A model generated the notes under the pieces. That model was not told the DNA's origin, did no database searches, and saw only the letters and a list, made by a program, of their open reading frames with translations. Shown piece by piece: positions 30,324 through 64,000 of a stretch of DNA of 64,000 bases. A program made the position numbers and the translations under genes. The DNA is taken from positions 64,001-128,000 of IMG/VR virus record IMGVR_UViG_3300047553_000365; one strand, written 5' to 3'. Source of the DNA: a virus. How positions within the stretch are numbered: the stretch's first letter is position 1; every line of letters begins with the position of its first letter.

Positions 30324-30331
30324 CCTATTAT

Positions 30332-31315
30332 TTAACCATTTTTGCTAAATTTTGAGGCGTAAAAGGTGACGGTTCTGTGCATAGCCTCGTCATGTTCCAT
30401 TAATTCAAACGAGCGTTTATAGTTAATAGAACTTATAGCATACCTAAAATCATGCCCCTGACGATCCTTTACAAACTTGATAATCGGGTCTATTTCTAAA
30501 ATTTTACCAATATCGGCAATCATTTCTAAATTGGTCATTTCCTTACCAGATCCGATATTATACACTCCTCCCGATTCCCCTATTTCTGCCAATTCTAAGA
30601 TACTTTTATTATGGTCATCTACATAGATCCACTCTCTAATGTTTGTGCCATCTCCATAAACAGGTATGGGTTTTCCATTTACTAAATTCTTAATTATGGT
30701 TGGAATTAACTTCTCATCAAACTGATTAGGCCCAAAATTATTACAACATCTAGTAGTAATAATATCTAATCCATAAGTATCCACATAAGATTTAGCAATT
30801 AAATCAGCGGCTGCTTTAGATGCAGAATAGGGACTTCTTGGATTGAGGTTAGTTTCCTCTGTGAATGGGTCAGAATTAAGCCCTAAATGCCCGTAGACCT
30901 CATCTGTTGATACATTTATAACTCTTGCCTGTGGTTGTTTTACACGCACCATTTCAAGCAATTTAGTAATACCCATTACATTGTTGTATACGAATGCTTC
31001 TGGACCAGAAATACTTCGGTCTACATGAGACTCGGCGGCAAAGTGAAAGACATAATCAAACTTGTTCTTGTTTATAACACCGTTCCAGAAAAGATTACTG
31101 TCAGGATTTAGATCACAAAGACTAAAGGATATTTCCTCATAATCAATATGGTTACATGCCATAGTGGTTGACATTTTACGATGGCCAATCCCCCATTTAT
31201 CGACATTTACTATACTTACGTTTTTATAATGTTTCTTTAAATATTCCAGAAAATTACTTCCAATAAATCCGCAACCACCCGTCACAAGAATGTTTTTGTT
31301 ATTTAAATCTACCAT
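30332..31315 (-). CDS. rmlB: dTDP-glucose 4,6-dehydratase
   Basis: ILVTGGCGFIGSNF, HFAAESHVDRSI, VSTDEVYG, SPYSASKAA and DRQGHDFRYAI motifs; start reassigned to MVDLNNKN. Confidence 0.95.
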   Translation of the reverse strand: MVDLNNKNILVTGGCGFIGSNFLEYLKKHYKNVSIVNVDKWGIGHRKMSTTMACNHIDYEEISFSLCDLNPDSNLFWNGVINKNKFDYVFHFAAESHVDRSISGPEAFVYNNVMGITKLLEMVRVKQPQARVINVSTDEVYGHLGLNSDPFTEETNLNPRSPYSASKAAADLIAKSYVDTYGLDIITTRCCNNFGPNQFDEKLIPTIIKNLVNGKPIPVYGDGTNIREWIYVDDHNKSILELAEIGESGGVYNIGSGKEMTNLEMIADIGKILEIDPIIKFVKDRQGHDFRYAISSINYKRSFELMEHDEAMHRTVTFYASKFSKNG

Positions 31316-31422
31316 ATTAATTTTATTACTATTTATTGACATTGAGGGGTTTTTTGAATTTGGAATGCCCTTCAAATATATGTTTAACATTGATTTTCCA
31401 TTTGTCAAGGCTAAATATTGAT

Positions 31423-31908
31423 ATGGACGAAGAACTTGATGACTTTGAGAACGAGATTGATAAGGATGTGGATTCAATTATATCCCAACTCAAGGATCGT
31501 AACAAATCAATGAAAAAGGCTGCTAGAGAAATGACCACTCTAAACAAAGAGGATATTGAAAAATTTATCATAGATAATGCGGCTGCTGTAGTTACGCATT
31601 CTTTAGAAATGATTGAAGATATGAAGGACATTACCATAGCAGGTGGAGAAAGTGAAGCTATTGAAGCGATGGCAGAATTAGTTAAAGCTACCACAGGTGC
31701 AATTGATTCATTGTCTAAGCTTAAACTAGCGGACGATAAAATCAAGGCCCAAAAACAATTAAAAGAAATGGATATCAATTCCAAGAAAATTGGGGATAGT
31801 GGTGTGGGAGCAAGTGGTATATACATAAGCAGAGAAGAACTCATTAAGGAGTTGGTTAAGACTTCAAGCGATCCAGAGAAGATCGAAGAACCTACAATAG
31901 ATGTTTAA
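31423..31908 (+). CDS. Putative terminase small subunit (gp16-like)
   Basis: Helical protein; EAIEAMAELVKATTGAIDSLSKL resembles the gp16 core; TAAATA-N5-ATG start. Confidence 0.45.
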   Translation: MDEELDDFENEIDKDVDSIISQLKDRNKSMKKAAREMTTLNKEDIEKFIIDNAAAVVTHSLEMIEDMKDITIAGGESEAIEAMAELVKATTGAIDSLSKLKLADDKIKAQKQLKEMDINSKKIGDSGVGASGIYISREELIKELVKTSSDPEKIEEPTIDV

Positions 31909-32815: not shown

Positions 32816-33712
32816 TTAATTAGATGCAAACATTTTTGCTTCAAAATTTCGTCTCTTTACTAAACCGGGAGCATCTTTACCACTAGCCTTAGTATATTCA
32901 AGAAGCTTTTTAGCAATCTCTTCATTACTTCTCTTACCGTTTTGTGTTAATGGTCCCAAAGAACCAATATTGAATCGGAAACTAGTTAATGCATCAACCT
33001 GTTTATCATTCCAATCATATCCCCATGCAGCCTTTGCTTTAAGAACTGCTTCCTTATGTTTGGCAAGATCTTCTCTTAGTCTCTTATCAGCTTCTTCTGG
33101 AGTAATGGTAGTTTCATTTGGTTTAGCTCTAGAACCATGACCAATTGACCATTGTTTATGATCCCAATGTTTGTTAGGCTTAAATCCTTCTTGTGTTTTA
33201 ACAAAGTTTACCAAATCTTCTCCCACGCCAGTATTTTTAGAAAACATGGACTGTGGCTTTTTAGGGGTGGGTATTGTTAGCTTACCCTTAACCAATACAG
33301 GTTTAGATTTGTCGGTCTTTGGTTCTGGAGGAGAGGATTTAATATCTTTTCCCTTGGGTTGTGAAATATTTGTTCTCTGTCTAAGAGGAGATGGTTGAGA
33401 CGGACCAATGTAATCCTTGGTGGCTGGTCCTGTTAGGACATCAATCCCATGTATGGTATCATCAATCTTAGGTTTGATCTTAGTGGAATAGTAGTTCTTA
33501 AGATCCTTAACAGTTTTATCGAAAGATGGAGATAGATCCTCTTTATCTGCTTGATTCAACGCTGCCATCTTTTGTTCAATGGGTTCTGGTCTGCTATCTA
33601 AATACTTAACAGCCTTATATGTTCCCACAGACGATGCTGCCATGGCTGTAAGGGCTAATAGAATTTCCTTAACGCCTTCGTCAAATTGAAACTTTTCCTG
33701 ATTATCGTTCAT
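32816..33712 (-). CDS. GH24 lysozyme with long N-terminal extension
   Basis: FVKTQEGF, WSIGHG, QVDALTSFRFNIG and GLVKRRNFEAKMF motifs; N-terminal hydrophobic segment. Confidence 0.85.
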   Translation of the reverse strand: MNDNQEKFQFDEGVKEILLALTAMAASSVGTYKAVKYLDSRPEPIEQKMAALNQADKEDLSPSFDKTVKDLKNYYSTKIKPKIDDTIHGIDVLTGPATKDYIGPSQPSPLRQRTNISQPKGKDIKSSPPEPKTDKSKPVLVKGKLTIPTPKKPQSMFSKNTGVGEDLVNFVKTQEGFKPNKHWDHKQWSIGHGSRAKPNETTITPEEADKRLREDLAKHKEAVLKAKAAWGYDWNDKQVDALTSFRFNIGSLGPLTQNGKRSNEEIAKKLLEYTKASGKDAPGLVKRRNFEAKMFASN

Positions 33713-33720
33713 ATTCTTAT

Positions 33721-35061
33721 TTAATCAATTTCCTCGTTTATACTAGCTTTTGGTCCGATATAGGTCTTTGTGGCAAACACCTGATTAGTGTATAATCCGT
33801 CAAAAAACTGATGTTTTACCTGTGTCACAAACCACCTACCTAGTAACTTCTGGTCAGTTTTGGGTAGTTCGCCCTCTGGGGGTTTACTGGCAGATACTAT
33901 ATCAATGAAGCGTCCTGCCTTTCTAGACGCAGAACCAATATTACTGAAAGATAGCTGTAAATTGTAGAATGTTAAAGAATTATGTATTTCTGCTTCTATA
34001 ATTTTAGCAGAATCTTCGGCCCTATAGGGATAAACATATTTTTTATATATCTTATCCTTGGCCTTGTTTTTAACAGCAAATGGTTTGGGCTTTCCTCCCT
34101 TGGATCTGAAGGGTTCTACGAAAATCTTCTCCCACTTATCTCTAACCTCATCAAAGTTCAATCTAAACGCTTTTTGTTGACCCATAATAGGATCATAACC
34201 ATAAACTATACTGTTAATAAAAAACTCTGTGGACCAGTTGTAGAGAGGAGTATTATACACCAAATTCTTAATGGGTGAAATGTATAATCCAACAGAAACC
34301 TCTGGGTCAGATTGTGGATTGTTTTCATTATCAAATCCAATCTCCGACACCATATCTCCAATTGGAAATGCTTCTAAACCTAAACTCTTATTATTCTTGA
34401 AAATATCAGATAGTAATGTTAAGGAGTATTTCTTGGTCTTATTATCTTTACTAATAAATCCCTTAACATGTATGTCATCACTTTTAGCATAGAAGATCTT
34501 AATAAAGTAACGAAGAAGATCCATATAGCGGAATGTTGCAGGAGGATGATACTTTATATAAAAATCACCCGATGCCCATTGTTCACCAATACTATCACTT
34601 CCTAACAGTTCTATAAAAATCTCTTTTATAAGATCCCCAACATAACCTTCATAAACTTTACCATATGGAATTGAATCCATAAACTTTATGGCATCGATAG
34701 CCTCTATGGTAAATGTTTTAATGTCCATCGATCTACTTAATGGATCTACTGTGTCAATATTATCAATAAGTATAAACTCTTGTTCGAACTCTTCATCCTT
34801 CAATCCCTTTTGTTCTTTAGGTTTAAACTTGATGGAGAGAACATCTCTACCATCTCCTCTTAAAACATAATCCTGTTCAAACAATCCGAAAGGATTAACA
34901 ATAGAAATTGTTCCTGACATAAATGGATCAAAGAAATCATCTACTAATTCCATTCCACGAATAGCAGCCTTTGTGAATATGATTTGTTGGTTATCAGGAT
35001 TTGATAATTTGAACTCACATTCATATTCAATGTCATTAAGCTTGAATATATTAGTTGCCAT
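33721..35061 (-). CDS. Baseplate hub-like protein (gp27-like)
   Basis: 446 aa in the baseplate cluster; D.F.P..SG.I.I at the N-terminus and GRWFVTQVKHQF at the C-terminus. Confidence 0.5.
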   Translation of the reverse strand: MATNIFKLNDIEYECEFKLSNPDNQQIIFTKAAIRGMELVDDFFDPFMSGTISIVNPFGLFEQDYVLRGDGRDVLSIKFKPKEQKGLKDEEFEQEFILIDNIDTVDPLSRSMDIKTFTIEAIDAIKFMDSIPYGKVYEGYVGDLIKEIFIELLGSDSIGEQWASGDFYIKYHPPATFRYMDLLRYFIKIFYAKSDDIHVKGFISKDNKTKKYSLTLLSDIFKNNKSLGLEAFPIGDMVSEIGFDNENNPQSDPEVSVGLYISPIKNLVYNTPLYNWSTEFFINSIVYGYDPIMGQQKAFRLNFDEVRDKWEKIFVEPFRSKGGKPKPFAVKNKAKDKIYKKYVYPYRAEDSAKIIEAEIHNSLTFYNLQLSFSNIGSASRKAGRFIDIVSASKPPEGELPKTDQKLLGRWFVTQVKHQFFDGLYTNQVFATKTYIGPKASINEEID

Positions 35062-35063
35062 GA

Positions 35064-35459
35064 TTAGTAATGTCTTCCACCGAATACGGTTGAGTTAGTA
35101 ATATCCTCATAGATCAATGATCTTATGGGATCTAGAATGTATTTAAGTTGAACCCCACCCTCTACATAGAATGGTGCGCCTTCAAACTTATCCTTATTAA
35201 GTAAGTATAATATCCACCAACTTTTAATATCTCCGTAAATATTATAAGAAGCTATTGTCATTGCCATTCGTTTGTTGGGAGTATAGAAACCAATGTATTG
35301 ATCGTCAATCTCAGGAAAGTCAATCTTCTTTAAGATGTTATAGGTGTAGAAGTTCTTATCATCTTTCGATTGTTGAAAGACTTTAAAAATGCGTTCATAT
35401 TCTCTGATGCTTAATGCTGAGAGTGATGGTATATCGTTTCTGTAAGTTCCTGTGTCCAT
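35064..35459 (-). CDS. Baseplate wedge protein (gp53-like)
   Basis: IASYNIYGDIKSWWILYLLNK (LysM-like gp53 pattern). Confidence 0.6.
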   Translation of the reverse strand: MDTGTYRNDIPSLSALSIREYERIFKVFQQSKDDKNFYTYNILKKIDFPEIDDQYIGFYTPNKRMAMTIASYNIYGDIKSWWILYLLNKDKFEGAPFYVEGGVQLKYILDPIRSLIYEDITNSTVFGGRHY

Positions 35460-36328
35460 TATACGTGATCCATAAATCCTGCGTGTTCGATTGTGAGAGA
35501 TTGGAATGTCATGGAAACAAGATATGCTTCCGGTTCAATAACACCATTTATCTCTCTTCTTGTTCCAATAAAGTCAACAGCAAAATCACTACAATAGGCC
35601 CATCTGATAAATCTATGACCGGGAATTCTAATCTTATAGATTCTTGGCGGTTCTACTGTTAAGCTATTCTTTCTTAAAGGTCTATTTATTCTTGTTAGCT
35701 TATCGATCAGCTCTCTGTTTTTCTGTAAGCTATCAGCGTTGATAGTATTTGATAATACAAATGTCACTTCAATGGGACCATCTGTTTTATCGTATTGGTA
35801 ATACATTGGAGTTTCAATGTATGTACCGGGACTCATGTTGGTAGCAAATTGATTATTAAAAAAGTCTTTAACCCCTGCCCATCCACCTATAGCACCCGCA
35901 TTTTCAGCGTTTTTCTTGAAGGTATCCATTCCTTTATCTGCACCAGTTATATTCTTAAGTTCTCCCAACCCACCGAAAAGTTGTTTGACCATTTCATTTA
36001 CTTCACTACCTATACCACCTGAAGATGCACTACTTGGTCCTGCAAACGAATCACCGAAAGCGTTTGAGAATCCCCTAATACGATCACTAAACATCGGAAA
36101 ATTAAAATCATCTTCCTCAGTTACAGACTCCGAATACATCCTATCATAAAACTCATCAGCACTCTTATCTTGAGTATCGTATATATTCATATAACCCCTA
36201 AATGCCAACATGATTTGATTGGCATTTATCTTATATGATTTCACTATAGCCTTTGGTGCAGAATTTCTCAAACCAGATCCTCTTGGGGAACTGGTCCAAT
36301 CATAATCTCTGACTACATCGTATCTCAT
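35459..36328 (-). CDS. Baseplate tail-tube cap/initiator (gp48/gp54-like)
   Basis: Position; F.LSNT, PPRIYKIRIPG and Y.VSMTFQSL patterns. Confidence 0.5.
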   Translation of the reverse strand: MRYDVVRDYDWTSSPRGSGLRNSAPKAIVKSYKINANQIMLAFRGYMNIYDTQDKSADEFYDRMYSESVTEEDDFNFPMFSDRIRGFSNAFGDSFAGPSSASSGGIGSEVNEMVKQLFGGLGELKNITGADKGMDTFKKNAENAGAIGGWAGVKDFFNNQFATNMSPGTYIETPMYYQYDKTDGPIEVTFVLSNTINADSLQKNRELIDKLTRINRPLRKNSLTVEPPRIYKIRIPGHRFIRWAYCSDFAVDFIGTRREINGVIEPEAYLVSMTFQSLTIEHAGFMDHV

Positions 36329-36338
36329 ATTTTATTAT

Positions 36339-38249
36339 TTATGCTTGTGCATAAGGACTAGCCCTATAGCCGTCTCTATTATTACCTACTGGAATTCTAT
36401 TAGTTGAAGAGGATTGATTTTGAACAGGCAATACTATAGGTGGGCCACCGCTAGAATTGTTTCCACTAATTCTCTTCAATTCCTTTAAGGATAATGTGCT
36501 TATAGTTACTAGGCTTGCCAGTAGCTCGACATTTTTAGATGATAGCTCTTCAAGAGTATTGATAGGTTTAGATTCTTTTGATATTGCACCAAAGTTTATT
36601 TTGCTCGCTTCCTCTGCTTTCTTAGCTTTTGCAGCGTTGGTCGAATTTGGCGATGATTTACCTTCACCGAAAAATGAATTCCATGACCAGTCTTGATTAA
36701 GCATACTTAAAATACCTGATCCTTTTTTAGCACCATTACTTATTCCAGCCTTTAAACTTTTTATAGTTTCTTTAGCGGAATCTACTAGTGTATCTACAAG
36801 TCCCTTATGTTCATCTTTTACATCATTCTGTGCATTTTTCAAATATTCGTATGCTTTGTTTCCTCCCAAGACTTTATCTACAGAACTATAGACCCAATCA
36901 GATGCATTATTAATTACCTTTGTAGTTTTCTCTGAAAGATAACCCCAAAAACCCTTTTTAACTCCATCATCAGATTTTAGAGGTTCTGCGGTCTTTTCCT
37001 CTCCACCAAAGAATGAAGTTAGTAAGGAGAATCCTTCCATAGCACCGGGAGCTAAAAATCTACTCATTCCATTTGCTACAGCCATAAGACCCTCTTTCTT
37101 TCTTCCACTCTTAAAGAATTTATTAGCATCTACCATTAACTTAACCCCACTCAATAATGGGATTTTGTCGGCATTATCCCACAACCAATCACCTATAGAT
37201 TTAGCCCATCCCTTAATAGTTTCCCATCCATGTTTTTCAAATGAAACATCTTTTGGTTTTTCTTTAGGACTTAAGAATCCAACTAAGGTTGCAAACCCTG
37301 TGAATATTTGATCGACTCCTATAAATCCAAGAAATGCTCGTCCTAAGTCGATAAGACCACCTTTGGTATCGCCAATGGCAAACTTGTATTGTGCATCAGT
37401 AAATCTTTTGATCCCTCCAAGAATTGGAAGATACTCTGCTTTAGACCAAATAAAATCACCTATATTGGATGCCCATCCTTTAATGGTCCCCCACGCATTC
37501 GCATTGCTTAATGATCCACCTTCGTCAAACATTCCCTTTTGTTCAGCATATGCAATTAATATATCTGCACCAATAGATAGTATAGGGCCAACGCCCGGAA
37601 TTAGATTTAAAAAGGCTGATATTAATTCTGCCACGCCTTTAGCTATATCCCCCTGCATAAATGCCGTGGCAGCATAGGCAAACCCAACAATAGCACCTAC
37701 GATTGGGAGTCTTTTCAACACATGTTTTGTAAATCTTTTTAAGAATAATTTGCTTACTAGTTTCAACCCTCCCCAAATACCTACTTTACCAATAGTCTTT
37801 ACCCATCCACCAGCGTTTCCAAACACCCCAAACAACGAGGCTATGATGCCACCAATACTGGCAGCGACTAGAGCTAATCCCCCAACAACCATTTTGATAA
37901 TAGACATAAGAGGACTTCCCTCTTTCTTCTCTTTAGCAAAACTGTATTTTTGTCTATCCTTATTGATTTTCTCAACTAAGGTTCTTTCTTTACTATCCCT
38001 CTCTTGTGTCTTCTTGTAATCAAAAAAGACCTTAGCAAATATCGAAAATGTTTCAACGGCTCTTTTCCTTTCCTTTGGGGAAAGCCTAGATGGTTGAACC
38101 TTCTGTCCCCTGTCTAAAGTGGACTTTTCGGACTTGATAACATTCTTATCTACTATCAATTCCCCCGAATCAGGAACACCCCTTTCTGATGAAAGCCGCT
38201 CTAGCAGCCCCATCATCTTTGATAGAAGGTCAAATGTCTGTTCGTTCAC
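36339..38249 (-). CDS. Tape-measure-like protein (gp29-like)
   Basis: 636 aa, Gly/Ala-rich amphipathic helices with internal Trp-containing repeats; lies between hub assembly genes and tube cap. Confidence 0.6.
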   Translation of the reverse strand: MNEQTFDLLSKMMGLLERLSSERGVPDSGELIVDKNVIKSEKSTLDRGQKVQPSRLSPKERKRAVETFSIFAKVFFDYKKTQERDSKERTLVEKINKDRQKYSFAKEKKEGSPLMSIIKMVVGGLALVAASIGGIIASLFGVFGNAGGWVKTIGKVGIWGGLKLVSKLFLKRFTKHVLKRLPIVGAIVGFAYAATAFMQGDIAKGVAELISAFLNLIPGVGPILSIGADILIAYAEQKGMFDEGGSLSNANAWGTIKGWASNIGDFIWSKAEYLPILGGIKRFTDAQYKFAIGDTKGGLIDLGRAFLGFIGVDQIFTGFATLVGFLSPKEKPKDVSFEKHGWETIKGWAKSIGDWLWDNADKIPLLSGVKLMVDANKFFKSGRKKEGLMAVANGMSRFLAPGAMEGFSLLTSFFGGEEKTAEPLKSDDGVKKGFWGYLSEKTTKVINNASDWVYSSVDKVLGGNKAYEYLKNAQNDVKDEHKGLVDTLVDSAKETIKSLKAGISNGAKKGSGILSMLNQDWSWNSFFGEGKSSPNSTNAAKAKKAEEASKINFGAISKESKPINTLEELSSKNVELLASLVTISTLSLKELKRISGNNSSGGPPIVLPVQNQSSSTNRIPVGNNRDGYRASPYAQA

Positions 38250-38257
38250 ATATATAT

Positions 38258-38989
38258 TTAATCGTTGGTATCAAAGAAGGACACATCAATATCCACGGAA
38301 TTTCCACTATCATCCGTTAATAGGGTATTTTCAGCACTTTTAATCTTCTGAATAAAGGCTATGGCCTTTCTATTAACCTCTAATGGTAGGTTTTCAACCA
38401 CCTTATATCTGTCCTTGACGGGAATCTTATCGAATTCCAGTTCTTCATTACCAATGACTAATTTTGATATATATTTAACAATCTCAAAAGTATAGATTTG
38501 TCCAATTGACTTACTCACATTATTTTCCTCAACTTTAGTATTATCAATGGAGTATTTCAAAATCTTATTTTCTTCACTTATCTTGGGTGTCTCTAAATGA
38601 AGGATAACTTCTCCCTTAACTACCTCTGTTTTTGGAGGATTGAATTTAGAGACATTATTTAACAGAGATGATATTTTTACCACACCATCTGTTATTACAA
38701 CATCATCACTAATTGATTCCTGTCTCAACTTTAAAATGATAGGCAATTTATCTGTAACTAACAAATCTTGATTATCAGTATTTTCCAACACTACATCATT
38801 CAAAATCTTTTGAAATTTTAATACTCCAATAAACCCATCTCCAATAGTGCTGATGATGTCCTTCTGTTGTTTGAAAGTTAGGTTCTGGCAGCTAATCTCC
38901 TTATTTAGAGAGGCAACAAAAACCTTAGTATTCTTCTTATCACCAAGCTCTTGAATCTTATCCAAGAAATCTTTAATATTGTTTTCCAT
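38258..38989 (-). CDS. Baseplate hub assembly protein (gp26-like)
   Basis: LTFKQQKDI, LKLRQESISD and VENLP patterns; position. Confidence 0.55.
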   Translation of the reverse strand: MENNIKDFLDKIQELGDKKNTKVFVASLNKEISCQNLTFKQQKDIISTIGDGFIGVLKFQKILNDVVLENTDNQDLLVTDKLPIILKLRQESISDDVVITDGVVKISSLLNNVSKFNPPKTEVVKGEVILHLETPKISEENKILKYSIDNTKVEENNVSKSIGQIYTFEIVKYISKLVIGNEELEFDKIPVKDRYKVVENLPLEVNRKAIAFIQKIKSAENTLLTDDSGNSVDIDVSFFDTND

Positions 38990-39010
38990 GATTGTATTTA
39001 GAATGGCGGG

Positions 39011-39736
39011 TTATAATTTCAAGTGGTTATTTTTGGTTTCAATTTCGGAAGTAAGCTTCTTTGTGTAATAGTCAATATCCTGTAATGTGCTGTTCATCAA
39101 CACGTTACCATCTATCTTCTCTGATAAGTGATATATAACATCTCTGAAATAGTCCTCTCCATATGAGGAAAATAGCCTTCTAAGAAAGACCACCGAATCT
39201 ACTGTTAAGAAATTTAATTTAATATCTGCAAATAAAAGATCATCAAAGGATAATATCTTATCCTTATATTCAGAAATATGTTTAATTATAACATTATATA
39301 ATTTTGGAGGAAGACTGTCAAGTATAATTTGTTTATCCTCTTCCTTAAGTTTATCTATATTGATAACAGTATTATGAATACTTATAGTTCGAATAATATC
39401 ATAAATAGGTATGACATCAGAGATCTTAAATTTTTTTGGTATGCTTAATTCTACCTTGTAAGGATCGAATGATACAAACATCGGTTCATTAATATCAGTT
39501 GTCTTCAACTGATCCATTATATAAGATACATTCATCTTAATGTCCTTACCATCTCTATTAAAATTCATAGTTGGAGAAACATCGATATTCCAACAATTCA
39601 ATATGTTCATGAATTTGTCATATGTAGTGTCTCCTCCAAAACTATTAATATACTCTAGAAAAAAACTATCGTTTCCTTTAACGAGTTGTTCTGTAATTGT
39701 TTGAAGATCCTTAAATGTTATTTTATTTTTAGTCAT
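39011..39736 (-). CDS. Baseplate hub assembly protein (gp26/gp51-like)
   Basis: Position; ILDSLP pattern similar to the neighbouring gene. Confidence 0.4.
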   Translation of the reverse strand: MTKNKITFKDLQTITEQLVKGNDSFFLEYINSFGGDTTYDKFMNILNCWNIDVSPTMNFNRDGKDIKMNVSYIMDQLKTTDINEPMFVSFDPYKVELSIPKKFKISDVIPIYDIIRTISIHNTVINIDKLKEEDKQIILDSLPPKLYNVIIKHISEYKDKILSFDDLLFADIKLNFLTVDSVVFLRRLFSSYGEDYFRDVIYHLSEKIDGNVLMNSTLQDIDYYTKKLTSEIETKNNHLKL

Positions 39737-40368: not shown

Positions 40369-40393
40369 AAAATTATTTACCGTAGTAAACGAA

Positions 40394-54355: not shown

Positions 54356-56163
54356 TATTCTTCAACGATTTCTATTCTATTAACTATACCATTTGGACGA
54401 TATATGTAGGGGAATTTAAAGAACTCTAATGTCTTAGTCTGTGTTACAAGTGTTTCGTCCACTCCTTCAAACATTGGATTCCACATAATGAATGATAATC
54501 CGTTGATAACACTACCATCAGTATTTTCAGTTCTCAAACTAGTTATACCATCTATGCTTAAAATGTCTGTGGTGATTTTTGAAATATCAATTGTCTGTCC
54601 TAACTTAACATTAAGAGGGCTGAAGTAGGTCTTGATCTTATCGATGACTTGTTTCTTCAACTGTTCCTTGTTTTTCTTGTTGTTTTTGTCTCTGACGATT
54701 ACTAATTTGCTGTTCTTATAAACATCCTTAGTTTTGTCAGTATCACTATATCCAATATCGAGTGCCATATAGATAGGATCTCTTGGAACAACTTCATTGC
54801 TAATCATTTTCTTATCCTTAGTGATATCTTTGATTAGTGTCTTATAGCTGTTGCTAACGAAGTCTGGATAATCCTCATCAACAGTTATATTGAATGTTGG
54901 GACACAAAATACATTGACATTATTAAAGTCGCAAGAGTCCGCATAGTTGACTTGGTTTAAAATCACTCTATTAACCTTATTTGGATCTACGCAAATATCA
55001 TAGAAGTATTGAATGTAGCTAGAAATAAACACATCGTTGGATACCACACGAACATCATTCAATGCATTGGGGATACTCTTCTTAAAGAATCTCTCATAGT
55101 CTTCCTCAGTAACCAAACGAAGTTGTGATGATAGAAATACTGGTGTATTACTTCTGATGCTTTCAATACTCTCCGCATCTTGAATAAGAGTGGAGTTTGT
55201 GGGATTGGAAAATGATAGGAATGTGCTGTATGCCTGATCGATAATGGTTCCTGCTCCCACATCACGAACATCGTTATAAATCTGACTAAATGTTGAGTTG
55301 TTGTATAGGAAAAGTTTATTACCATCCACGGCTCCCTTACTAATCAATCCTCTATCACCATCACTCAAAATATAAAATACGGAAACTTCATCAGCAGTGT
55401 TTAATTTCTTACCAAACACGCCATTACCGAATTTGATTTCATAATGACCATTTTCATTGAGTCTAAGATCATATACTCTATCGGTTCCCTTGGTTAAAAA
55501 TAGAGTATCCACTTCTTCATACTCTTTCCAAGTTCCTGAATCGGCTTCTTTAACATATACGCTGATAGAACCGTGAGAGATGAATTTCTTGTTATTTGAA
55601 TCGACCAAATTATCTACAACCACAGGAAATGTTTCATATTCATCTCCAAGGGCGGTATATGTTGGATATTGACCAACGGTTCCTTGGAACAACACAACCT
55701 GATCGTTTAGAGTTTGAATAGCTTCCACACCACTTCCAACTTTCTCAAATGAGAAGTCTTTCATGAAGGTGTATTGAACGTTATCTACTAAAAAGTAACT
55801 ATACTTTCTGATAACATAGCTACCTGTGGCCAATCCATCCGATGCTTCACATGAGATGGGACATAAGGATGTTTGTCTACCTGTAGGTTTGTAACCCAGA
55901 AGTTTTACAATCTTGTTCATGTTCTCATAGATGGTTGCCTGAGAGAACATTGTTTCCGAAGATGTTTGGTTTAAATAAAAGAGAAGAACGTGGGTGTAAT
56001 ATGCCAAAATACTAATAATTGATGACATGTTACTACCTTCATAATTCTGGTCAGTAAATTTACCAGTTTTATTAAGTTGGTCAATCATGTAGGCTTTCAA
56101 TGAAAGCGCATCGAAATTGACATAAGCATTATTCGGTAGGTTATACTCTAAATTATCGTTCAC
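54355..56163 (-). CDS. Baseplate wedge protein (gp6-like)
   Basis: FTDQNYEGSNMS, YEIKFGNGVFGK, ESIESIRSN..RLVTEEDY motifs. Confidence 0.88.
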   Translation of the reverse strand: MNDNLEYNLPNNAYVNFDALSLKAYMIDQLNKTGKFTDQNYEGSNMSSIISILAYYTHVLLFYLNQTSSETMFSQATIYENMNKIVKLLGYKPTGRQTSLCPISCEASDGLATGSYVIRKYSYFLVDNVQYTFMKDFSFEKVGSGVEAIQTLNDQVVLFQGTVGQYPTYTALGDEYETFPVVVDNLVDSNNKKFISHGSISVYVKEADSGTWKEYEEVDTLFLTKGTDRVYDLRLNENGHYEIKFGNGVFGKKLNTADEVSVFYILSDGDRGLISKGAVDGNKLFLYNNSTFSQIYNDVRDVGAGTIIDQAYSTFLSFSNPTNSTLIQDAESIESIRSNTPVFLSSQLRLVTEEDYERFFKKSIPNALNDVRVVSNDVFISSYIQYFYDICVDPNKVNRVILNQVNYADSCDFNNVNVFCVPTFNITVDEDYPDFVSNSYKTLIKDITKDKKMISNEVVPRDPIYMALDIGYSDTDKTKDVYKNSKLVIVRDKNNKKNKEQLKKQVIDKIKTYFSPLNVKLGQTIDISKITTDILSIDGITSLRTENTDGSVINGLSFIMWNPMFEGVDETLVTQTKTLEFFKFPYIYRPNGIVNRIEIVEE

Positions 56164-56177
56164 AAATATATTTAGGA

Positions 56178-56663
56178 TTATGGGAGCGAATAACCAGCAG
56201 AATTCAACTCAGATTTTATAGATAATCCATATACCCCCAAGGATGGGACGTTTATCTTCATCTGAATATAGATGGTATTGTTGTCTTCATCGCCATCCAC
56301 CAGAACCTCCTCTACCTCAACCCTAGGTTCGTGTCTGGGAAGTTTTGACTTAATATTATCAGTAATAATATCGATAATGAAGTCATTAATGGGTTCAAAG
56401 AGGTATTGTCTTAAATCGATTCCATAGGTAGGATTTAGCACCTTATCCCCCGGTTGGGTAGTAAATGCGGATATAATGCTGTTTTTAACGGCCTCAATAT
56501 CGTAAATTGCCACCAAATCCTTTAAAGGTTTGCTTTTATTAAGATCTCTATTTATGTAAACATTCTGGTTAATATCCAGTTGAATATCCTTATACAGATA
56601 GTCCTTCTTCAGAGTTTGCTCCGTCAAGGCTACAGGTTTTAGGGATTTTATCTTAATACTCAC
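56178..56663 (-). CDS. Baseplate wedge protein gp25-like
   Basis: LYKDI, AVKNSI..FTT.PG.KVLNPTYG.DL and EPRV motifs. Confidence 0.88.
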   Translation of the reverse strand: MSIKIKSLKPVALTEQTLKKDYLYKDIQLDINQNVYINRDLNKSKPLKDLVAIYDIEAVKNSIISAFTTQPGDKVLNPTYGIDLRQYLFEPINDFIIDIITDNIKSKLPRHEPRVEVEEVLVDGDEDNNTIYIQMKINVPSLGVYGLSIKSELNSAGYSLP

Positions 56664-56737
56664 AAAATTATTTATCTATATGACCCCCATAAACCGAAAA
56701 ATACCAAATAATCCGGGTTGTTTTATTAAATATAGAC

Positions 56738-57304
56738 ATGGGAAAAAAATTTGATGCAATTTACGAGGCTGTAATCTCCAGATATAATGTAGGAGGTTAT
56801 CTTCCGGGTGATATTATTAAGTTCAGACCTGACTATAAATCTTCTGAAACTTATAAAGCTATGCCTTCCTTGATGAAACAGGAATTGGATGAACTGGCAA
56901 ACAGTGGTCTAAACATTAAAGTGGTTCAAATCGGAACCAGAGTAGACAACCACTCCATTTCGGTAAATCCTAAGCTTGCTAACGATGTTGTTATTACAAT
57001 CGCAGGGGATCACGGTGGTAGACACTTTGGAACGATTGCAGTTGCTCCTGACATGATCGATCTTGAAGATCCTAACAATCCCACTCCAAAGGTTCCTGAC
57101 CAATTTAAGTGGGATGACAGCAAGTATACTAAATTTGAAGCTGAAGAGTATAAGCCAGATGAAAAGAACATCACCCGTGTTACTGACAAGGGAAATGGTA
57201 AAAATACTCCAACTCAATTAAAATTAGCAGGGGAATCCGTAAGAATTACCCGTGATAATGAAAAGATGGCAGAGTTATACGAAAAAACTCTAAATCAAGC
57301 ATAA
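56738..57304 (+). CDS. Hypothetical late protein (possible internal head protein)
   Basis: TAAATA-N5-ATG start; KFDAIYE leader. Confidence 0.65.
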   Translation: MGKKFDAIYEAVISRYNVGGYLPGDIIKFRPDYKSSETYKAMPSLMKQELDELANSGLNIKVVQIGTRVDNHSISVNPKLANDVVITIAGDHGGRHFGTIAVAPDMIDLEDPNNPTPKVPDQFKWDDSKYTKFEAEEYKPDEKNITRVTDKGNGKNTPTQLKLAGESVRITRDNEKMAELYEKTLNQA

Positions 57305-58218
57305 TCTTCTAGAGAAAGAATACAGGCAAAGAAATTAATCTCTTTATCTGCAACTCTAGTAGTTTTATCTAAATAATCGGCTATGGTGATTACCATAGCC
57401 TTTTTATTGGCATCCTCAATCCTTTGAACATACACATAGTTTAAAAGATTGGTCAAAAGCTGATCCCAATCAGAGTTAAATAGGGCATCATTCTCAATAA
57501 GATACTTTCTAGTATCTAATCCTTTTTTACTCTTTAAGTTTTTCCAAATCAGGTTAAGAAGTTCGTCAGTAGATTCCTTCTTGACCAGTTTAAACACTCC
57601 CCCCACACAGTTCTTGGACAATTCCCCGATACACTTACGAAGATCGGGAAAATTCTGTTTAACAAGGTCAACAACCTGTTGTGCTTGTTCCTTATTGATC
57701 TTGATGCCTTCCTTGTCTAATATATGTAAGCATCTACCAACGGCACTTCTTAAATCAGGTCTAAGATCCAAACTTTGACACCTAGACTGAAGGGCAGTAC
57801 TAATCTTGTGCCTATGATTGCCAGTTAGAATGAATCTTGCGGTATTGGCATAAGATTCCATCAGATTTCTAAGGCATTTTTGTCCATCAATGGTCAACCC
57901 GTCTGCCTCATCCAAAATCACCACTTTTAGATTACCATCCAAACTCTTAGTTTGAACAAATCCTGTAACTTTGTTGCGAATGGTATCAATACCATTTTCA
58001 TCAGATGCGTTGATATACAAAAAGTCACATTTCAGTAAATCTTCCACCAAAATTCTAGAAAGAGTGGTTTTTCCAACTCCTGCGTGACCTATCAAAAGCA
58101 AATGGGGAATATCATCTCCCCATCCAACTATTAACCCCTTAATATCGTCAGAAATGCAAAGATCCTCAAGGGTTTTTGGGCGATATTTTTCAATCCAGAG
58201 ATTTTTATACTGTGTCAT
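57295..58218 (-). CDS. Sliding clamp loader subunit (gp44 / RFC small-like)
   Basis: LWIEKYRP, GHAGVGKTT, INASDENGID, ILDEAD and ALQSRC motifs. Confidence 0.92.
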   Translation of the reverse strand: MTQYKNLWIEKYRPKTLEDLCISDDIKGLIVGWGDDIPHLLLIGHAGVGKTTLSRILVEDLLKCDFLYINASDENGIDTIRNKVTGFVQTKSLDGNLKVVILDEADGLTIDGQKCLRNLMESYANTARFILTGNHRHKISTALQSRCQSLDLRPDLRSAVGRCLHILDKEGIKINKEQAQQVVDLVKQNFPDLRKCIGELSKNCVGGVFKLVKKESTDELLNLIWKNLKSKKGLDTRKYLIENDALFNSDWDQLLTNLLNYVYVQRIEDANKKAMVITIADYLDKTTRVADKEINFFACILSLEDYA

Positions 58219-58949
58219 CCTTCAAGGAATATATCACAGTTTGCGCGTTTGTCAAGGGCGCGAATAAACTCTGCACACTCTAGCAAATCGTCATGATTAC
58301 CACAGTCAAACCAGACTCCTCCAAACTCCACAGCATCCACATAATCTGTTTCATCTAGTTCTCTAATTAAATCAACGATTTCCAGTTCTTTTCTGCTAGA
58401 TGGTTTGAGTTTCTTTGCAATCTCAACCACCTTATTGTTAAAGGTATACAGCCCTACAATTGCTTGATCGCTGATGAAATCTTTAGGCTTTTCAACGATC
58501 TGATCTATTCTACCCCACTCGTTGAAAGTCACCACACCGTATGCAGATGGATTTTTAACCTTATATGTCACGATGGTATTAGGCATACAAAACTTATATA
58601 TTTCATCATCCAGTAAGAACACATTATCCCCCAGAATTAGAGTAACATCATCATCACCTATAAACTCTTCTCCTAAAATAAATGCTTCGGGAAGACCATT
58701 TGGATTCTCTTGAACTATAAATTGAATGTTGACCCCAAAATTCTTACCCTCAAAATAATGTTTAAATAGATTTAATTGTTCATTCGATGCCACAATTATT
58801 AATATATCCTTAATACCCATCTTTATTAAGGTTTTTAATGGATAATAAATCATGGGTTGTTTATAAACAGGTAATAACTGTTTACTGATACCGTAAGTCA
58901 ATGGATATAAACGACTTCCCTTTCCTCCTGCTAAAATAATGCCTTTCAT
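58215..58949 (-). CDS. rmlA: Glucose-1-phosphate thymidylyltransferase
   Basis: KGIILAGGKGSRLYPLT..SKQLLPVYKQPMIYYPL, LILGDN, IVEKP, ELEI and WFDCG motifs. Confidence 0.95.
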   Translation of the reverse strand: MKGIILAGGKGSRLYPLTYGISKQLLPVYKQPMIYYPLKTLIKMGIKDILIIVASNEQLNLFKHYFEGKNFGVNIQFIVQENPNGLPEAFILGEEFIGDDDVTLILGDNVFLLDDEIYKFCMPNTIVTYKVKNPSAYGVVTFNEWGRIDQIVEKPKDFISDQAIVGLYTFNNKVVEIAKKLKPSSRKELEIVDLIRELDETDYVDAVEFGGVWFDCGNHDDLLECAEFIRALDKRANCDIFLEG

Positions 58950-59818
58950 AATGAATTATTGTAATCACACACCATCTTCAGAATTTCTTCTTCGGTATGT
59001 AAACAATATATAGCATTGGCCTTTGAATTATCAAGTACACAATTGCTTCGGGGAGCAGCTATTTTCAACTCTTCAATGTTTACCCAATTTGGGTCTAGTT
59101 TTGGCCAGTTTCCCTTATTATTCTCATTAAGAATTTCAATCACTCTTTTTGTGGTAAGAGGTTCGCCATTTACCACATTATAGATGATCTGTCCTGTGGC
59201 ATATAGTTTGGTTTGAAGTAATTTACCAATGAATTCACACAGATCAGGAACATAGGTCTTAGAATTTAGAAAGTCCACTAGATTTGGATATTTCATAATC
59301 TTTGTCAGATAATTTCTACCACTATTAAGATCATTACATATAGGCATTCTTAATCTTATCACTTCCACTCTCATGTGTTTAGATCCTAGTTCATAAGCAT
59401 GTTTACTTTTACTGTAAAATGAACTATAATCAAACAATCCAAAGTTTGGATCGTCTTTTTCCGTAAACTTCTTATCGTAACCAGTAAAAATACACCCTGA
59501 AGAGATGTGAATGTAACGAACACCAATACTGTTACACATGGAAGTAATTCTTAGGGGAGAATTTACATTTAACTCCCAACATTCAGCCTTTCTAGATTCA
59601 GCTTCATCCACATTAGGTCTTCCTGTGAAGCCTGAACAGTTAATAACAGTTTCTATCTGGTTCTTACAAAGATAATACCTCAACGCATGAACATCGTGAT
59701 AATTAAGATCGGAACTACCCACAATCTCCACATCACAGGATTGTTTTAAAAAGTTATATAAATGATTTCCTATATAACCTTTACCCAGAATTAGTATCTT
59801 ACTTGGACAGTTCTTCAT
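58946..59818 (-). CDS. NDP-4-keto-6-deoxyglucose 3,5-epimerase/4-reductase (NRS/ER-type, RmlD superfamily)
   Basis: ILILGKGYIG, INCSGFTGRPNVD, HISSGCIF, SFYSKSK, LRMPI and PRSNCVLD motifs. Confidence 0.8.
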   Translation of the reverse strand: MKNCPSKILILGKGYIGNHLYNFLKQSCDVEIVGSSDLNYHDVHALRYYLCKNQIETVINCSGFTGRPNVDEAESRKAECWELNVNSPLRITSMCNSIGVRYIHISSGCIFTGYDKKFTEKDDPNFGLFDYSSFYSKSKHAYELGSKHMRVEVIRLRMPICNDLNSGRNYLTKIMKYPNLVDFLNSKTYVPDLCEFIGKLLQTKLYATGQIIYNVVNGEPLTTKRVIEILNENNKGNWPKLDPNWVNIEELKIAAPRSNCVLDNSKANAIYCLHTEEEILKMVCDYNNSL

Positions 59819-60014
59819 TTAAATAGTCCTTAATATCATTAATAGACATTGTATTATTATATTCGATAAACTCTAAAAGAGCCTCACAAAATTGGGAACC
59901 CATATAAGATAGCTCCTCATCCTCCGTAGAATCTAGGTAATCCCTAATACTATAGGCACAATCCATAAGAGCTTCTTCCTTTTCCACTAGCTTTTTTAAT
60001 ATTTTTGCGTTCAT
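59799..60014 (-). CDS. Hypothetical acidic protein
   Basis: 71 aa, first gene of the epimerase/reductase-rmlA-gp44 run. Confidence 0.65.
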   Translation of the reverse strand: MNAKILKKLVEKEEALMDCAYSIRDYLDSTEDEELSYMGSQFCEALLEFIEYNNTMSINDIKDYLNEELSK

Positions 60015-60130
60015 TTTCTTTTATTTACTCCAACTTTCCATTTTGCAACTTTTATTTAAGAGCCTTGACAATTTTTGATAAAATCAATCAAATACATTGA
60101 TGTGGAGTGCTACCTTTCTAAATAATAGTA

Positions 60131-62800
60131 ATGGCATTCTCATTACAATTAGGCTTCCCAGAGGTTCCAAAATCTATCACCAATCCTAGCGTAGACAAAA
60201 AAGACGCATTGGATGTTGGAACCCCGTTTGCATTCCTAGATTTCATTAAGATCATTAATACCTCTTTCTCCCCTGATAGTTTACAGAATTATTACAACGC
60301 TTATTTAACAGATTGGAATAATTACAACAAAAGTAAGGGGGATTCTGAAAAAGACCTTATTGTAAGTAAGTATAAGGAATTCCTTAAGGATATTGTTCTA
60401 AAACACACCACCCTTGAAGAGAAGGAATTCCTTTCCAAGATTGATTTTGATGATCCTTTGGACTTGGAGATAGCCTTGGGATTCTATAGCAGAAAATTAA
60501 AGGAACTGTGTCTCTTTTATAACAATAAGAGAAACAATGCTAAGTTTCGTATAACTGCCAATAAGATGAAGGGAACCAACTATGGTTCGGAAATAACCAT
60601 AAAAGAGTTGGTCCTCTCATATATCGACAACATCGAAGAAAGCCAAATCTACATCGATTTGGATTCCGTCAAAGCCAATCTTGAAATTGAAATTGAAGAA
60701 CTTTACGATATTCACCCCCTATACTTTAATCAAGAACCAGATGAAACGGTTTACGATAATAAGGATCTGGATTATGGGTTAAACATCTTTTTAAAGGATA
60801 ATGCCACTCTCATCAATGAAGTATTTTCTGGATTTTCGGAAGATCTTAAAAGAATCAAAGAAGTTGACGAGCTTTTTGATAATAAGAGAAAACTTACAGA
60901 AAAATACATGGGAACCAGTTTCTATTACCTATCCACAGGTTCTACAGGAACTACCTTCCTCTCAGGTAAGTTGTTTGACAATCAAAACACCATTAAGAAT
61001 TTCATAAACAGAAATTATCCAACTACTGCATCAACCACAAGGGATAGTTTTGAAAATAGAATGGAGCGTGGGTTCTTCAGACCTATTAATACTTCATTTG
61101 TGATGATTGATGGGGTCAATAAAGAGTATGTAATCAATTCCAGAAATCTTGAACCAAACTCTCTTTACTTCTTTCCAGATCCAAAAATATTTGGCAACAA
61201 TCTACCAATATTCCAATTCGTAGTCGATGATTCCAAATTAAAAAGAAACACAAGTTCTGGAATAAGTAAGAACCATCCAAATAGTAGTAAGTTTGATACA
61301 AAATACTATGGTTACACATCTAGATTGGACCCAAATGTTAGGAAATATCTAAACTCTATCTTTAACTCTGGATATGTCGCAGATTTCAAAAAGGACATAT
61401 ATGGAAACTCTTACGGACTATTCAAAGATGGGTTTGATAGATACTTTGTCAATGTTGATGCAAACTCTCCTCCAACTTACAATCTAGTATTTAATGGGTA
61501 TGAGTTCTTCGATGAATTTTATAATGAGGGTTATAATTTCAACTACTTCACTGAAGATGATGTAACTTATTCTGAAACTATTAGAAGTGGTCTTTCCACA
61601 AACACAGGATTCTTCACCACAGCCGATGTTGATCTATTTCTATCATTCGGTAAGTTTGATCCATACTATCCCATCATTCCTGCAACAGAAGCACATCTGT
61701 TAAAGACCGAAAGATTTATAGATGCTGGATTTATACTTAAACCAAACCTATCAGCATATGCAGATCCCGTATCTTCTGATCTATCAGCATTTGAACTATC
61801 AACTGATGAGTTTTATTATACTACCCTTCTGGAAGGAGGAGTCAATGCTATCAGTCCTCTTCAAAGAGCATTACTTGATCCTCTCTACCCATCTCTAACT
61901 GCAAACTTCTTAACCTTCCCAAAAACAAGTGCCTTTGGAGTTATTGATTGTGGATCATTCTACGATAACCTTCAAAGTTTCGGAGTAACACAGAACAGTC
62001 TCTATATTGACGATATGGATGGCAACAGTTCTACTAGACTAATACCACAATCCACCTATAATGCTCTTGAGGGAGATATATACATTAAGAATTCTTATGA
62101 CAAGTCGATTCTTCCTCTTCTCAGCGCATTGCCATACCTTACTGATAGACACTCCGTTGCTATCGTCAATGAGTTGAGTGGTGGTATTAGAAAGTTTGAG
62201 GTCATTTATGACAACATGATAATTGAAACTGATAATTATCTTGTTATTGAAAAGATTAACTTCGCTGATGGTCAATTCAAAGAACCAATCGTTGGGTCTA
62301 AGAGTTATACCCACAATATCGACAACTTCAACAAAATCTCAAACAGATTTAAAGTTGATAATAGTGTCTATTACTGCACAGTATCGGCAACAGGGTCGTT
62401 TATAGATGGAGATTTCCGAGTCTTTCCAAAAATCTATAAATTCGATCCTATCAACTTCAAGAACTATCTATTGTTCCCAACAGCAACAACAAATCTTGAA
62501 TATTTTACATTGACTGGTGAATTGGTGGAATACATTGCAGCAGATACTCCTAAGTTGACATACTCAAAGGTGAATAATGTTTTCAATATATCTCTTGTTC
62601 TAAAAGACCATAACTACTTTCCAAAGATTGTGTCTTACGATTGGATACTCAATCCCGATGTGGAATTTATAGATAAGCGTGGATTGGATCTATCCAATAT
62701 CAAGACAACTAACACCTTCCTGTCATCCTTTGCCTCAACGTTGACAATATTCCTATCGTCTAATGGTACACAAATCGTAAATGAGGAGATTGTAATATGA
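60131..62800 (+). CDS. Large virion structural protein (baseplate/fibre-associated?)
   Basis: 889 aa; TAAATA-N6-ATG start; S/T/aromatic-rich like neighbouring structural genes. Confidence 0.65.
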   Translation: MAFSLQLGFPEVPKSITNPSVDKKDALDVGTPFAFLDFIKIINTSFSPDSLQNYYNAYLTDWNNYNKSKGDSEKDLIVSKYKEFLKDIVLKHTTLEEKEFLSKIDFDDPLDLEIALGFYSRKLKELCLFYNNKRNNAKFRITANKMKGTNYGSEITIKELVLSYIDNIEESQIYIDLDSVKANLEIEIEELYDIHPLYFNQEPDETVYDNKDLDYGLNIFLKDNATLINEVFSGFSEDLKRIKEVDELFDNKRKLTEKYMGTSFYYLSTGSTGTTFLSGKLFDNQNTIKNFINRNYPTTASTTRDSFENRMERGFFRPINTSFVMIDGVNKEYVINSRNLEPNSLYFFPDPKIFGNNLPIFQFVVDDSKLKRNTSSGISKNHPNSSKFDTKYYGYTSRLDPNVRKYLNSIFNSGYVADFKKDIYGNSYGLFKDGFDRYFVNVDANSPPTYNLVFNGYEFFDEFYNEGYNFNYFTEDDVTYSETIRSGLSTNTGFFTTADVDLFLSFGKFDPYYPIIPATEAHLLKTERFIDAGFILKPNLSAYADPVSSDLSAFELSTDEFYYTTLLEGGVNAISPLQRALLDPLYPSLTANFLTFPKTSAFGVIDCGSFYDNLQSFGVTQNSLYIDDMDGNSSTRLIPQSTYNALEGDIYIKNSYDKSILPLLSALPYLTDRHSVAIVNELSGGIRKFEVIYDNMIIETDNYLVIEKINFADGQFKEPIVGSKSYTHNIDNFNKISNRFKVDNSVYYCTVSATGSFIDGDFRVFPKIYKFDPINFKNYLLFPTATTNLEYFTLTGELVEYIAADTPKLTYSKVNNVFNISLVLKDHNYFPKIVSYDWILNPDVEFIDKRGLDLSNIKTTNTFLSSFASTLTIFLSSNGTQIVNEEIVI

Positions 62801-63303
62801 ACACCTATACTATAACACTATCATCTAACTCTACATCATATTCCACCACACTTTCAACCCAAAATGTGGAGGATGTAACAAATGTTATTTTAAATTTTGA
62901 AAATATATATCAAGAGATAATTCCAACCCAAATCGTGATAGATTGGGGTAATGGAAATGTGCAGACTATTGAAAATGACCCCTACAGAGTTCTTTTAAGA
63001 ACTGAAGTTAATGTGTTTAGTCGTTTTCCGATTACAAGCACTACCCAAAGCCAAGTCCTATACCCATCTGAAACAAAATTATATAAGACATTTAATATTC
63101 AAGTCATAGTTATCTATTCTGACTACAATTACTCATATTTCAACATACCAGTAAGTTTACGTTCTGGAGACTTCTTTGAAACCATCCAAGACCTTAAAAT
63201 TCAAGATGTTGTCATACTTCCAGAGGATAATAACCCCAAAAACTACATTTTTAAGGGTTCGATAGATAATCAAATTTTCGAAATGAATAACCTAGATAAA
63301 TAA
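62797..63303 (+). CDS. Hypothetical structural protein
   Basis: ATGA overlap; IDWGNG PKD-like motif. Confidence 0.65.
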   Translation: MNTYTITLSSNSTSYSTTLSTQNVEDVTNVILNFENIYQEIIPTQIVIDWGNGNVQTIENDPYRVLLRTEVNVFSRFPITSTTQSQVLYPSETKLYKTFNIQVIVIYSDYNYSYFNIPVSLRSGDFFETIQDLKIQDVVILPEDNNPKNYIFKGSIDNQIFEMNNLDK

Positions 63304-63307
63304 TATT

Positions 63308-64000
63308 GTGTATATTTCATCGTATAGTTTATCTACCTTCGAATCTCCTAAATTAAGCTGTAGCTTAATGGGGGTGGGGGTAAAGCAAGCAGTAAGAAGT
63401 TATCCGGGTAACTACAAGATAACCTTTCCTACCTGTTTTCAGAACTTTAATGATGAAAAGACCATCAATTATAGTAATTTCTACCTGACAGGGGAATATC
63501 TATTCACTGATATCTTCGAAACCTCTAAAAATACCATAAAAAGTCAGACCATTCTGACAAAAATTCAATATGGTAGACAATTTTTAACATTTGAGGCCGT
63601 AAATCCTGATTATTTTGTATATTACGGCAACTATAAGCAATATAAGAACTATGGAATAGGGGTCTTCAGCAGCACGGCTTCCGATAAATTCTACATCGAG
63701 TTCCAAGGATACGGAAAGTGTAATATCTATTTCAAAAAAGACGACCTCAAATACTATCTGGTCGCTGATGAGGATAATAAACTATTTTTTGCCAACGAAA
63801 GAGTAATTCCTACTGGAACTGCCTATACAAGCAAGCCGCAGGACTTCAACTACACCTTCCAAAGTGACGGAAACTACTTCCTGTTATTCAAACAGACTGA
63901 TGATGGATCATTTATTGTAAGAAAAGAGGGGGACATTCTGGTTCTGAAGAACAATATTATTGATTATGTATATGATCCTTTCCGATTGACAAGAGATGTT
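63308..64000 (+). CDS. Hypothetical structural protein, partial (open at window end), not in ORF track
   Basis: GTG 5 nt after TAAATA; frame VYISSYSLSTFESPKLSC...DYVYDPFRLTRDV continues to 64000. Confidence 0.7.
   Translation, partial: MYISSYSLSTFESPKLSCSLMGVGVKQAVRSYPGNYKITFPTCFQNFNDEKTINYSNFYLTGEYLFTDIFETSKNTIKSQTILTKIQYGRQFLTFEAVNPDYFVYYGNYKQYKNYGIGVFSSTASDKFYIEFQGYGKCNIYFKKDDLKYYLVADEDNKLFFANERVIPTGTAYTSKPQDFNYTFQSDGNYFLLFKQTDDGSFIVRKEGDILVLKNNIIDYVYDPFRLTRDV

Follow-up and report, generated by a model that had tools for sequence, protein, structure and literature searches.

Some two thirds of the late genes of an uncultured, freshwater, T4-like phage begin, on both strands, a few nucleotides (nt) downstream of the hexamer TAAATA. 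The stretch in question – hereafter the window – is 64,000 nt long and comprises bases 64001-128000 of the 138,655-bp IMG/VR record IMGVR_UViG_3300047553_000365 (estimated completeness 67%; G+C 36%), a contig designated G000. On the strength of sequence comparisons we regard it as probable that these boxes are gp55-type late promoters, giving rise to leaderless or near-leaderless messenger RNAs (mRNAs). TAAATA would correspond to the -11 to -6 core of a T4-type late promoter and would be read by the host RNA polymerase core together with the gp55 late sigma factor of this clade; with 5 nt, or in fewer cases 6-8, between box and start, transcription would begin on, or 1-3 nt from, the A or G of ATG or GTG. 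Each late gene or short late operon would then yield a leaderless or near-leaderless mRNA, translated without a Shine-Dalgarno (SD) site, the downstream genes of a unit being reached through stop-start overlap.

PHROG scans place rIIA, rIIB, RNA and DNA ligases, NAMPT and PRPP synthase in the first 30 kb of the window, and in the remainder a tail sheath, two tube-like proteins, the terminase large subunit, an endolysin, gp6-like and gp25-like baseplate wedge proteins and a clamp loader. Gene starts in the window were assigned from open reading frames (ORFs) alone. Cultured phages are all very distant: the terminase is 30% identical to those of cyanomyoviruses, and a segment of sheath DNA is 66% identical to that of Pelagibacter phage HTVC008M.

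Position and conservation of the TAAATA box

A site was defined as TAAATA, a spacer of 5-8 nt and an ATG or GTG that opens an ORF of at least 50 codons, which makes the core uniform by construction. The window holds 23, with spacers of 5 nt (15 sites), 6 nt (three), 7 nt (four) and 8 nt (one), and with ATG as the start codon at 17-18 and GTG at 5-6 of them; a preliminary description of the window had reported 23 boxes on both strands, spaced 5-8 nt with 15 at 5 nt and some preceding GTG, and these numbers are reproduced exactly. Two of the 23, at 31423(+) and internally at 50517(+), are doubtful as gene starts. Across the whole contig 39 of the 156 copies of TAAATA (25%) are followed by a start at a spacer of 5-8 nt, compared with 3-17 of 185-315 copies (1-6%) for 14 other permutations of the same six letters. 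TAAATA is itself the rarest permutation (156 observed against a Markov expectation of 179), and TAAATA-N5-ATG occurs 19 times in the contig against once for the reversed control. The distance histogram, set against this AT-matched null, thus has a sharp peak that is missing from the same-composition controls. The modal spacer is 5 nt, both here (24 of 39 sites) and in the closest complete relative, G001 (206,590 bp; 50 of 75).

Genes served by the box include those for the sheath, tube, terminase, gp6-like and gp25-like proteins and the endolysin. All but the last had been named in the preliminary description, and the PHROG assignments agree; gp3 and gp14, also named there, were not confirmed. 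The further proposal that nearly every late gene has a promoter of its own proved too generous, since a TAAATA box stands before 21 of the 32 genes of the late region, the others overlapping or abutting the preceding gene or using a different type of promoter. Early genes never carry TAAATA at 5-8 nt and use another box; the clamp-loader gene, though it stands amid late genes, has a promoter of the TTGACA type. The box therefore tracks the function of a gene rather than its position.

The geometry is that expected of a promoter whose transcript begins with the start codon. In T4 the late promoter box TATAAATA spans -13 to -6, with the first T at -13 (PMC2988020); TAAATA is then -11 to -6, and with a spacer of five nucleotides +1 falls on the start codon. 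A position frequency matrix of 74 sites with this spacer has no conserved upstream position, and thus no -35 element, while the G+C content of the spacer is at most ~22% at any position. Position -1 is a pyrimidine in 84% of these sites and +1 is A in 79% and G in 20%. Start codons at this spacing, in G000 and G001 together, are ATG (59), GTG (15), TTG (1) and CTG (0), a bias that matches the RTG start rule which experiments have demonstrated for mycobacterial leaderless mRNAs (PMC4633059).

A second, sigma70-like class of promoter, TTAAAACCG-N3-TAnnnT, lies at a modal spacer of 6 nt from ATG (21 of 25 in G000, 40 of 50 in G001), which is the canonical distance from the sigma70 -10 hexamer (-12 to -7) to +1; a third, TTGACA-N16-18-TAnnnT, lies 5-9 nt before starts. 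It would be difficult to account for two different boxes, each at the distance canonical for its kind, if transcription did not begin at the start codon. Besides the late class, two further promoter classes abut starts. Divergent late boxes set back to back, and boxes that directly follow terminators, leave no room for any other signal, and a promoter is needed there.

The layout is a trait of a whole clade of ~200-kb aquatic T4-like phages. A search with the sheath protein recovered 80 related loci (56-81% identity), including records of 177-207 kb. Of 46 distinct regions upstream of the sheath gene, 45 retain TAAATA-N5-7-ATG amid variable spacers and flanks, and the remaining one has TAAGTA. 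Among all related loci a long ORF begins 5-8 nt after 461 of 1240 distinct copies of TAAATA; for 325 of these the distance is 5 nt, against a background of ~5 per position. Three complete relatives each have 53-59 copies of TAAATA-N5-RTG, compared with 3-5 of the reversed control, and between G001 and the present contig the layout is kept in 22 of 23 orthologue pairs. Many of the relatives' sites form back-to-back divergent pairs; in one pair measured, the gap from start to start is 28 nt.

SD signals are at background throughout. Scanning for GGAG, GAGG or AGGA at -18 to -5 before ATG genes gave 8% in G000 and 6% in G001, which equals background, against 52% in T4, 49% in HTVC008M and 31% in Syn9; the earlier remark that no SD-like signal is evident apart from an AAGG before the sheath gene therefore holds genome-wide. 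That AAGG is present, but its spacer is not conserved in relatives, and four boxes have AAGG or GGAG 1-2 nt upstream, at 13-16 nt from the start and so too far for a canonical SD. Of 237 ORFs called over the whole genome, 67 start directly after a promoter box, and 89 overlap the preceding gene or abut it by at most 3 nt, so that at least two thirds have no need of an internal ribosome-binding site; the remainder include spurious ORFs over tRNA genes.

The late sigma factor and competing explanations

T4 late promoters are read by gp55 with the co-activator gp33 and the sliding clamp gp45 (PMC2988020, PMC7892883). A homologue of gp55, recognized by its match to phrog_234 ('late sigma transcription factor'; E 1e-24 to 1e-27), is encoded by an intact ORF of 146-153 amino acids (aa) in all five complete relatives (L085:1447-1893 and L086:1459-1920 among them), and matches annotated gp55 genes in more than 2000 T4-like records. 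In relative G005 it adjoins a helicase gene, and in HTVC008M a helicase gene likewise lies just upstream of gp55. Aligned to T4 gp55, the clade protein conserves the core residues L54, F86 and Y97, while T99 is replaced by N and N13 by S or P; T99 and N13 are among the residues of the T4 gp55 pocket (PMC7892883). It ends in an acidic tail (DENDGDYE) and is without T4's C-terminal clamp-binding motif. The T4-type late sigma anticipated by the preliminary description is thus found in the relatives.

Several observations nonetheless weigh against gp55-type, leaderless late promoters. Searches of the contig, which is 67% complete, found no gp55, gp33, gp45 or sigma-70 region 2; gp33 (PF16805) was found in none of the five complete relatives (one sub-threshold match, E 0.03, 12 bits) and gp45 (phrog_223) in two of the five, although small divergent proteins could escape the profiles used. 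Positions -13/-12 have no preference for TA, and these include the A(-12) that T4 gp55 inserts into its pocket (PMC7892883); variation at -13/-12 is known from Aeh1 (PMC2988020), and the late sigma of the clade perhaps reads these positions in a relaxed way. Spacers of 6-8 nt would leave leaders of 1-3 nt unless the choice of start site is flexible. The ~117 genomic copies of TAAATA that precede no start indicate that the bare hexamer is not the whole of the specificity, unless those copies are weak, silent or tolerated. Finally, at four sites the upstream gene stops at the box's own TAA, and read-through transcripts could also carry the box.

This last point bears on an alternative in which TAAATA works on RNA – as an A-rich, Kozak-like translation enhancer or re-initiation context within long polycistronic late RNAs, the host being one that does without SD pairing. 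We think this unlikely. It would account for the shared stop codons; with no SD in the genome internal cistrons need some other initiation signal, and the long runs of late genes on one strand could well be polycistronic. Yet early and replication genes, which are served by the same ribosomes, lack TAAATA and have instead a -10-like box at a canonical distance of its own, and the overlap-coupled internal genes of late units are without a box. The hexamer is, moreover, identical to the core of the T4 late promoter, the divergent pairs in gaps of ~28 nt and the boxes directly after terminators need a promoter where they stand, and the start codons follow the purine +1/RTG rule.

It might also be supposed that the late promoter is real and that the true start codons lie further downstream, behind ordinary leaders, the fusion of box and start being an artefact of gene calling. 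The starts do come from ORFs only, and 4 of the 23 sites have alternative in-frame starts nearby; but at the other 19 the codon next to the box is the earliest possible in-frame start, with the next in-frame ATG or GTG 9-176 codons downstream, and no SD precedes any alternative start. In 45 relatives coding conservation of the sheath gene begins at the box-proximal ATG while the spacer varies, and in HTVC008M the layout coincides with the starts annotated by the depositors, all of which makes such an artefact very improbable. As for a compositional accident of AT-rich intergenic DNA, the genome is indeed 36% G+C and its upstream regions are rich in A and T; however, the excess over 14 hexamers of identical composition, the reversed controls in contig and relatives alike, and conservation across a clade with 56-81% sheath identity have already refuted this explanation, and its likelihood is next to nil.

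The preliminary description had paired a T4-type late sigma with leaderless translation. The gp55-type promoters we favour accord with this in the distance peak, the T4 core, the gp55 genes of relatives and the background level of SD motifs, from which the 5′ ends of transcripts are inferred. A broader proposition – that an abundant phage clade expresses essentially all of its genome without ribosome-binding sites, with host sigma70-type, TAATTAAAACCG-box and gp55 late classes all putting +1 on the start codon and the rest reached by stop-start overlap – strikes us as possible though rather doubtful. If true, it would imply a host with canonical sigma70 promoters that translates 5′-AUG/GUG mRNAs as efficiently as Actinobacteria or Thermus or, alternatively, a phage that turns the cell to leaderless translation and so shuts off host protein synthesis.

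Relation to known systems

Late transcription in T4, a textbook case, produces messages whose leaders contain SD sites. The clade resembles T4 in the TAAATA core, the lack of a -35 element, the AT-rich segment downstream of the box, the use of both strands and the virion and lysis genes served, and its complete members have a gp55 homologue with a conserved sigma-region-2-like core. It differs in that the box is of 6 bp rather than 8 and stands 5-8 nt before the start, in the lack of SD sites, in a gp33 that was not detected and in a gp55 that lacks the clamp-binding tail. In T4 itself the box (TATAAATA) lies 16-40 nt upstream in 18 of 24 genes and never at 5-8 nt; in Syn9 (TAAATA) it is likewise 16-40 nt upstream, with none at 5-8. 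TAAATA-N5-ATG is not in excess over the control in S-PM2, P-SSM2, RM378 or Cr30.

HTVC008M (NC_020484), a cultured T4-like myophage of SAR11, is different again: TAAATA-N5-ATG coincides exactly with ~14 annotated starts, including a back-to-back gp2/gp4-like pair at 18916(-)/18943(+) and genes for a tail-tube cap (19456), a baseplate wedge protein (31132) and a tail-completion protein (75830). It is a mixed system, with SD motifs at 49% of its genes, many boxes further upstream, and both gp33 and a gp55 that has a C-terminal tail. As a cultured intermediate with the layout at ~14 genes, HTVC008M makes the matter testable at the bench.

Outside the T4-like phages there are two parallels. In the Thermus phages phiYS40 and Lalka27a most transcripts have the initiator codon's A or G as their first base and come from phage-specific middle and late promoter classes (bioRxiv 10.64898/2026.04.20.719267), a pattern that the present clade would share. 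Those phages are unrelated, however, their host phylum is known for leaderless genes, their late box (TAGGGT) is unrelated to gp55, and 5′ ends were mapped there, while here they are predicted. Cellular leaderless genes of Actinobacteria and Deinococcus-Thermus have a TANNNT box ~10 bp before the start (PMC3160421, PMC4633059), and share with the present sites a -10-type box that ends 5-7 nt before ATG or GTG, the lack of SD and the exclusion of TTG. Here, by contrast, the box is a phage late-sigma motif and not the housekeeping -10, and it serves about two thirds of late-region genes, as opposed to roughly 20-40% of all genes in those bacterial phyla.

Phage-wide leaderless transcription, the -10-like leaderless signature and T4 late promoters are each known separately; what appears to be new is their combination in T4-like phages that have lost SD sites altogether. 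The literature searched contained nothing linking leaderless mRNAs to T4-like late promoters, and studies of related marine myophages have located late promoters only by BLAST with TATAAAT. An environmentally widespread T4-like branch would thus have brought the T4 promoter core up to the start codon and given up its SD sites. Should RNA mapping confirm this, the layout would offer a simple rule for fixing start codons and recognizing late genes in hundreds of uncultured phage genomes; gp55-type promoters would be able to work as 6-bp boxes, apparently without gp33; and the hosts would have to translate leaderless AUG and GUG messages efficiently.

Individual sites, further promoters and host clues

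The first sites of the late region lie mostly on the minus strand, and at four of them the box supplies the stop codon (TAA) of the gene upstream: TAAATA-N5-GTG at 30321-30334, before a 76-aa ORF (30093-30323) and at the end of an epimerase-like gene; TAAATA-N5-ATG at 33710-33723, before the endolysin-like gene (32816-33712); TAAATA-N7-ATG at 36326-36341, before the gene at 35459-36328; and TAAATA-N5-GTG at 38247-38260, before a gene of 636 aa (36339-38249). Nucleotide-sugar epimerase-like genes (phrog_540) occur twice amid the late genes, at 30332-31303 (-) and 58946-59818 (-). The doubtful plus-strand site, TAAATA-N5-ATG at 31412-31425, opens an ORF that overlaps minus-strand genes and has an in-frame start further upstream.

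A run of TAAATA-N5-ATG sites follows, again on the minus strand: at 38987-39000, within an intergenic gap of 21 nt (gene 38258-38989); at 40366-40379 (gene 39736-40368); at 41006-41019, for a tube-like gene (40442-41008); at 43335-43348, for the tail sheath gene (41034-43337); at 43956-43969, for the tail tube gene (43377-43958); and at 48401-48414 (gene 47066-48403). Between the last two, at 44605-44620, TAAATA-N7-ATG precedes the gene at 43987-44607.

A divergent pair at 50211-50246 joins TAAATA-N8-ATG of the terminase large subunit gene (48420-50213, minus strand) to TAAATA-N7-ATG of the plus-strand gene at 50244-51074, the two boxes standing back to back at 50222-50236 with 3 nt between them. 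Within the latter gene lies an in-frame internal start, TAAATA-N5-ATG at 50506-50519 (+), so that with two late promoters the ORF may give rise to a complete protein and to one shortened at its N terminus. Next on the plus strand, at 51098-51144, a terminator-like hairpin and T-run are followed by GT and by TAAATA-N6-GTG of the gene at 51142-51465; 2 nt separate the T-run from the box at 51130, an arrangement with three similar cases in G001. One further copy of TAAATA, outside the window at ~9180-9215 of the genome, forms the loop of a strong terminator hairpin (GGGTGGGT-TAAATA-CCCGCCC-TTTTT) and is an example of a non-promoter copy.

TAAATA-N6-ATG at 51459-51473 (+) precedes the gene at 51471-52250, and TAAATA-N5-GTG at 56161-56174 (-) the gp6-like baseplate wedge gene (54355-56163). 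A second divergent pair, at 56661-56740, combines TAAATA-N5-GTG of the gp25-like gene (56178-56663, minus strand) with TAAATA-N5-ATG (box at 56727) of the plus-strand gene at 56738-57304. The contrasting clamp-loader (gp44-like) gene, 57295-58218 on the minus strand, has TTGACA-N16-TATATT-N9-ATG at 58216-58255 in place of TAAATA. The remaining sites are TAAATA-N7-ATG at 60012-60027 (-), for a 71-aa gene (59799-60014); TAAATA-N6-ATG at 60119-60133 (+), for an 889-aa gene (60131-62800); and TAAATA-N5-GTG at 63297-63310 (+), for a 755-aa gene that begins at 63308.

Some indications of the host come from the other promoters. TTGACA-N16-18-TAnnnT is enriched over its control (19 against 6 and 35 against 7), while the Bacteroidota-type promoter TTTG-N19-21-TAnnTTTG is not (4 against 3 and 5 against 6), which makes a Bacteroidota host unlikely despite the missing SD. 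WhiB, an actinobacterial marker, is absent from the contig and from four complete relatives, and the phage and its relatives have no gene for S21 or IF3. In a moron-like gene outside the window (genome 8331-9161, L123:82-909) the C-terminal 38 aa match a Victivallaceae metagenome-assembled genome (MAG) at 79% and a Bacteriovoracaceae MAG at 56%; the match is probably to a shared sorting or anchor domain. The Victivallaceae MAG (PVC) was rejected as a host, having SD motifs in 52% of its genes and no leaderless signature.

Among the non-late promoters, 39 copies of TTAAAACC(G) are followed by 3 nt and TAnnnT or CAnnnT, with ATG at a modal 6 nt (21 of 25); they lie at 1-29000 (-) of the window and over 39-93 kb of the genome, and the spacer after the box is GC-rich, unlike that of the late class. 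Some copies in G001 have TTGACA 16 nt before the -10, which places the box within the promoter spacer in a manner reminiscent of a MotA-box-like activator site. TAAATA is not found at promoter distance before tRNA genes. In G001 a non-late box does occur there: TTGAC-TTTAATTAAAACCG-N3-TATAAT ends 5 nt before the mature 5′ end of tRNA-Asp (28680-28714), and boxes like it precede other tRNAs (21430-21470, 23900-23941), which argues that this element is a promoter rather than a translation signal.

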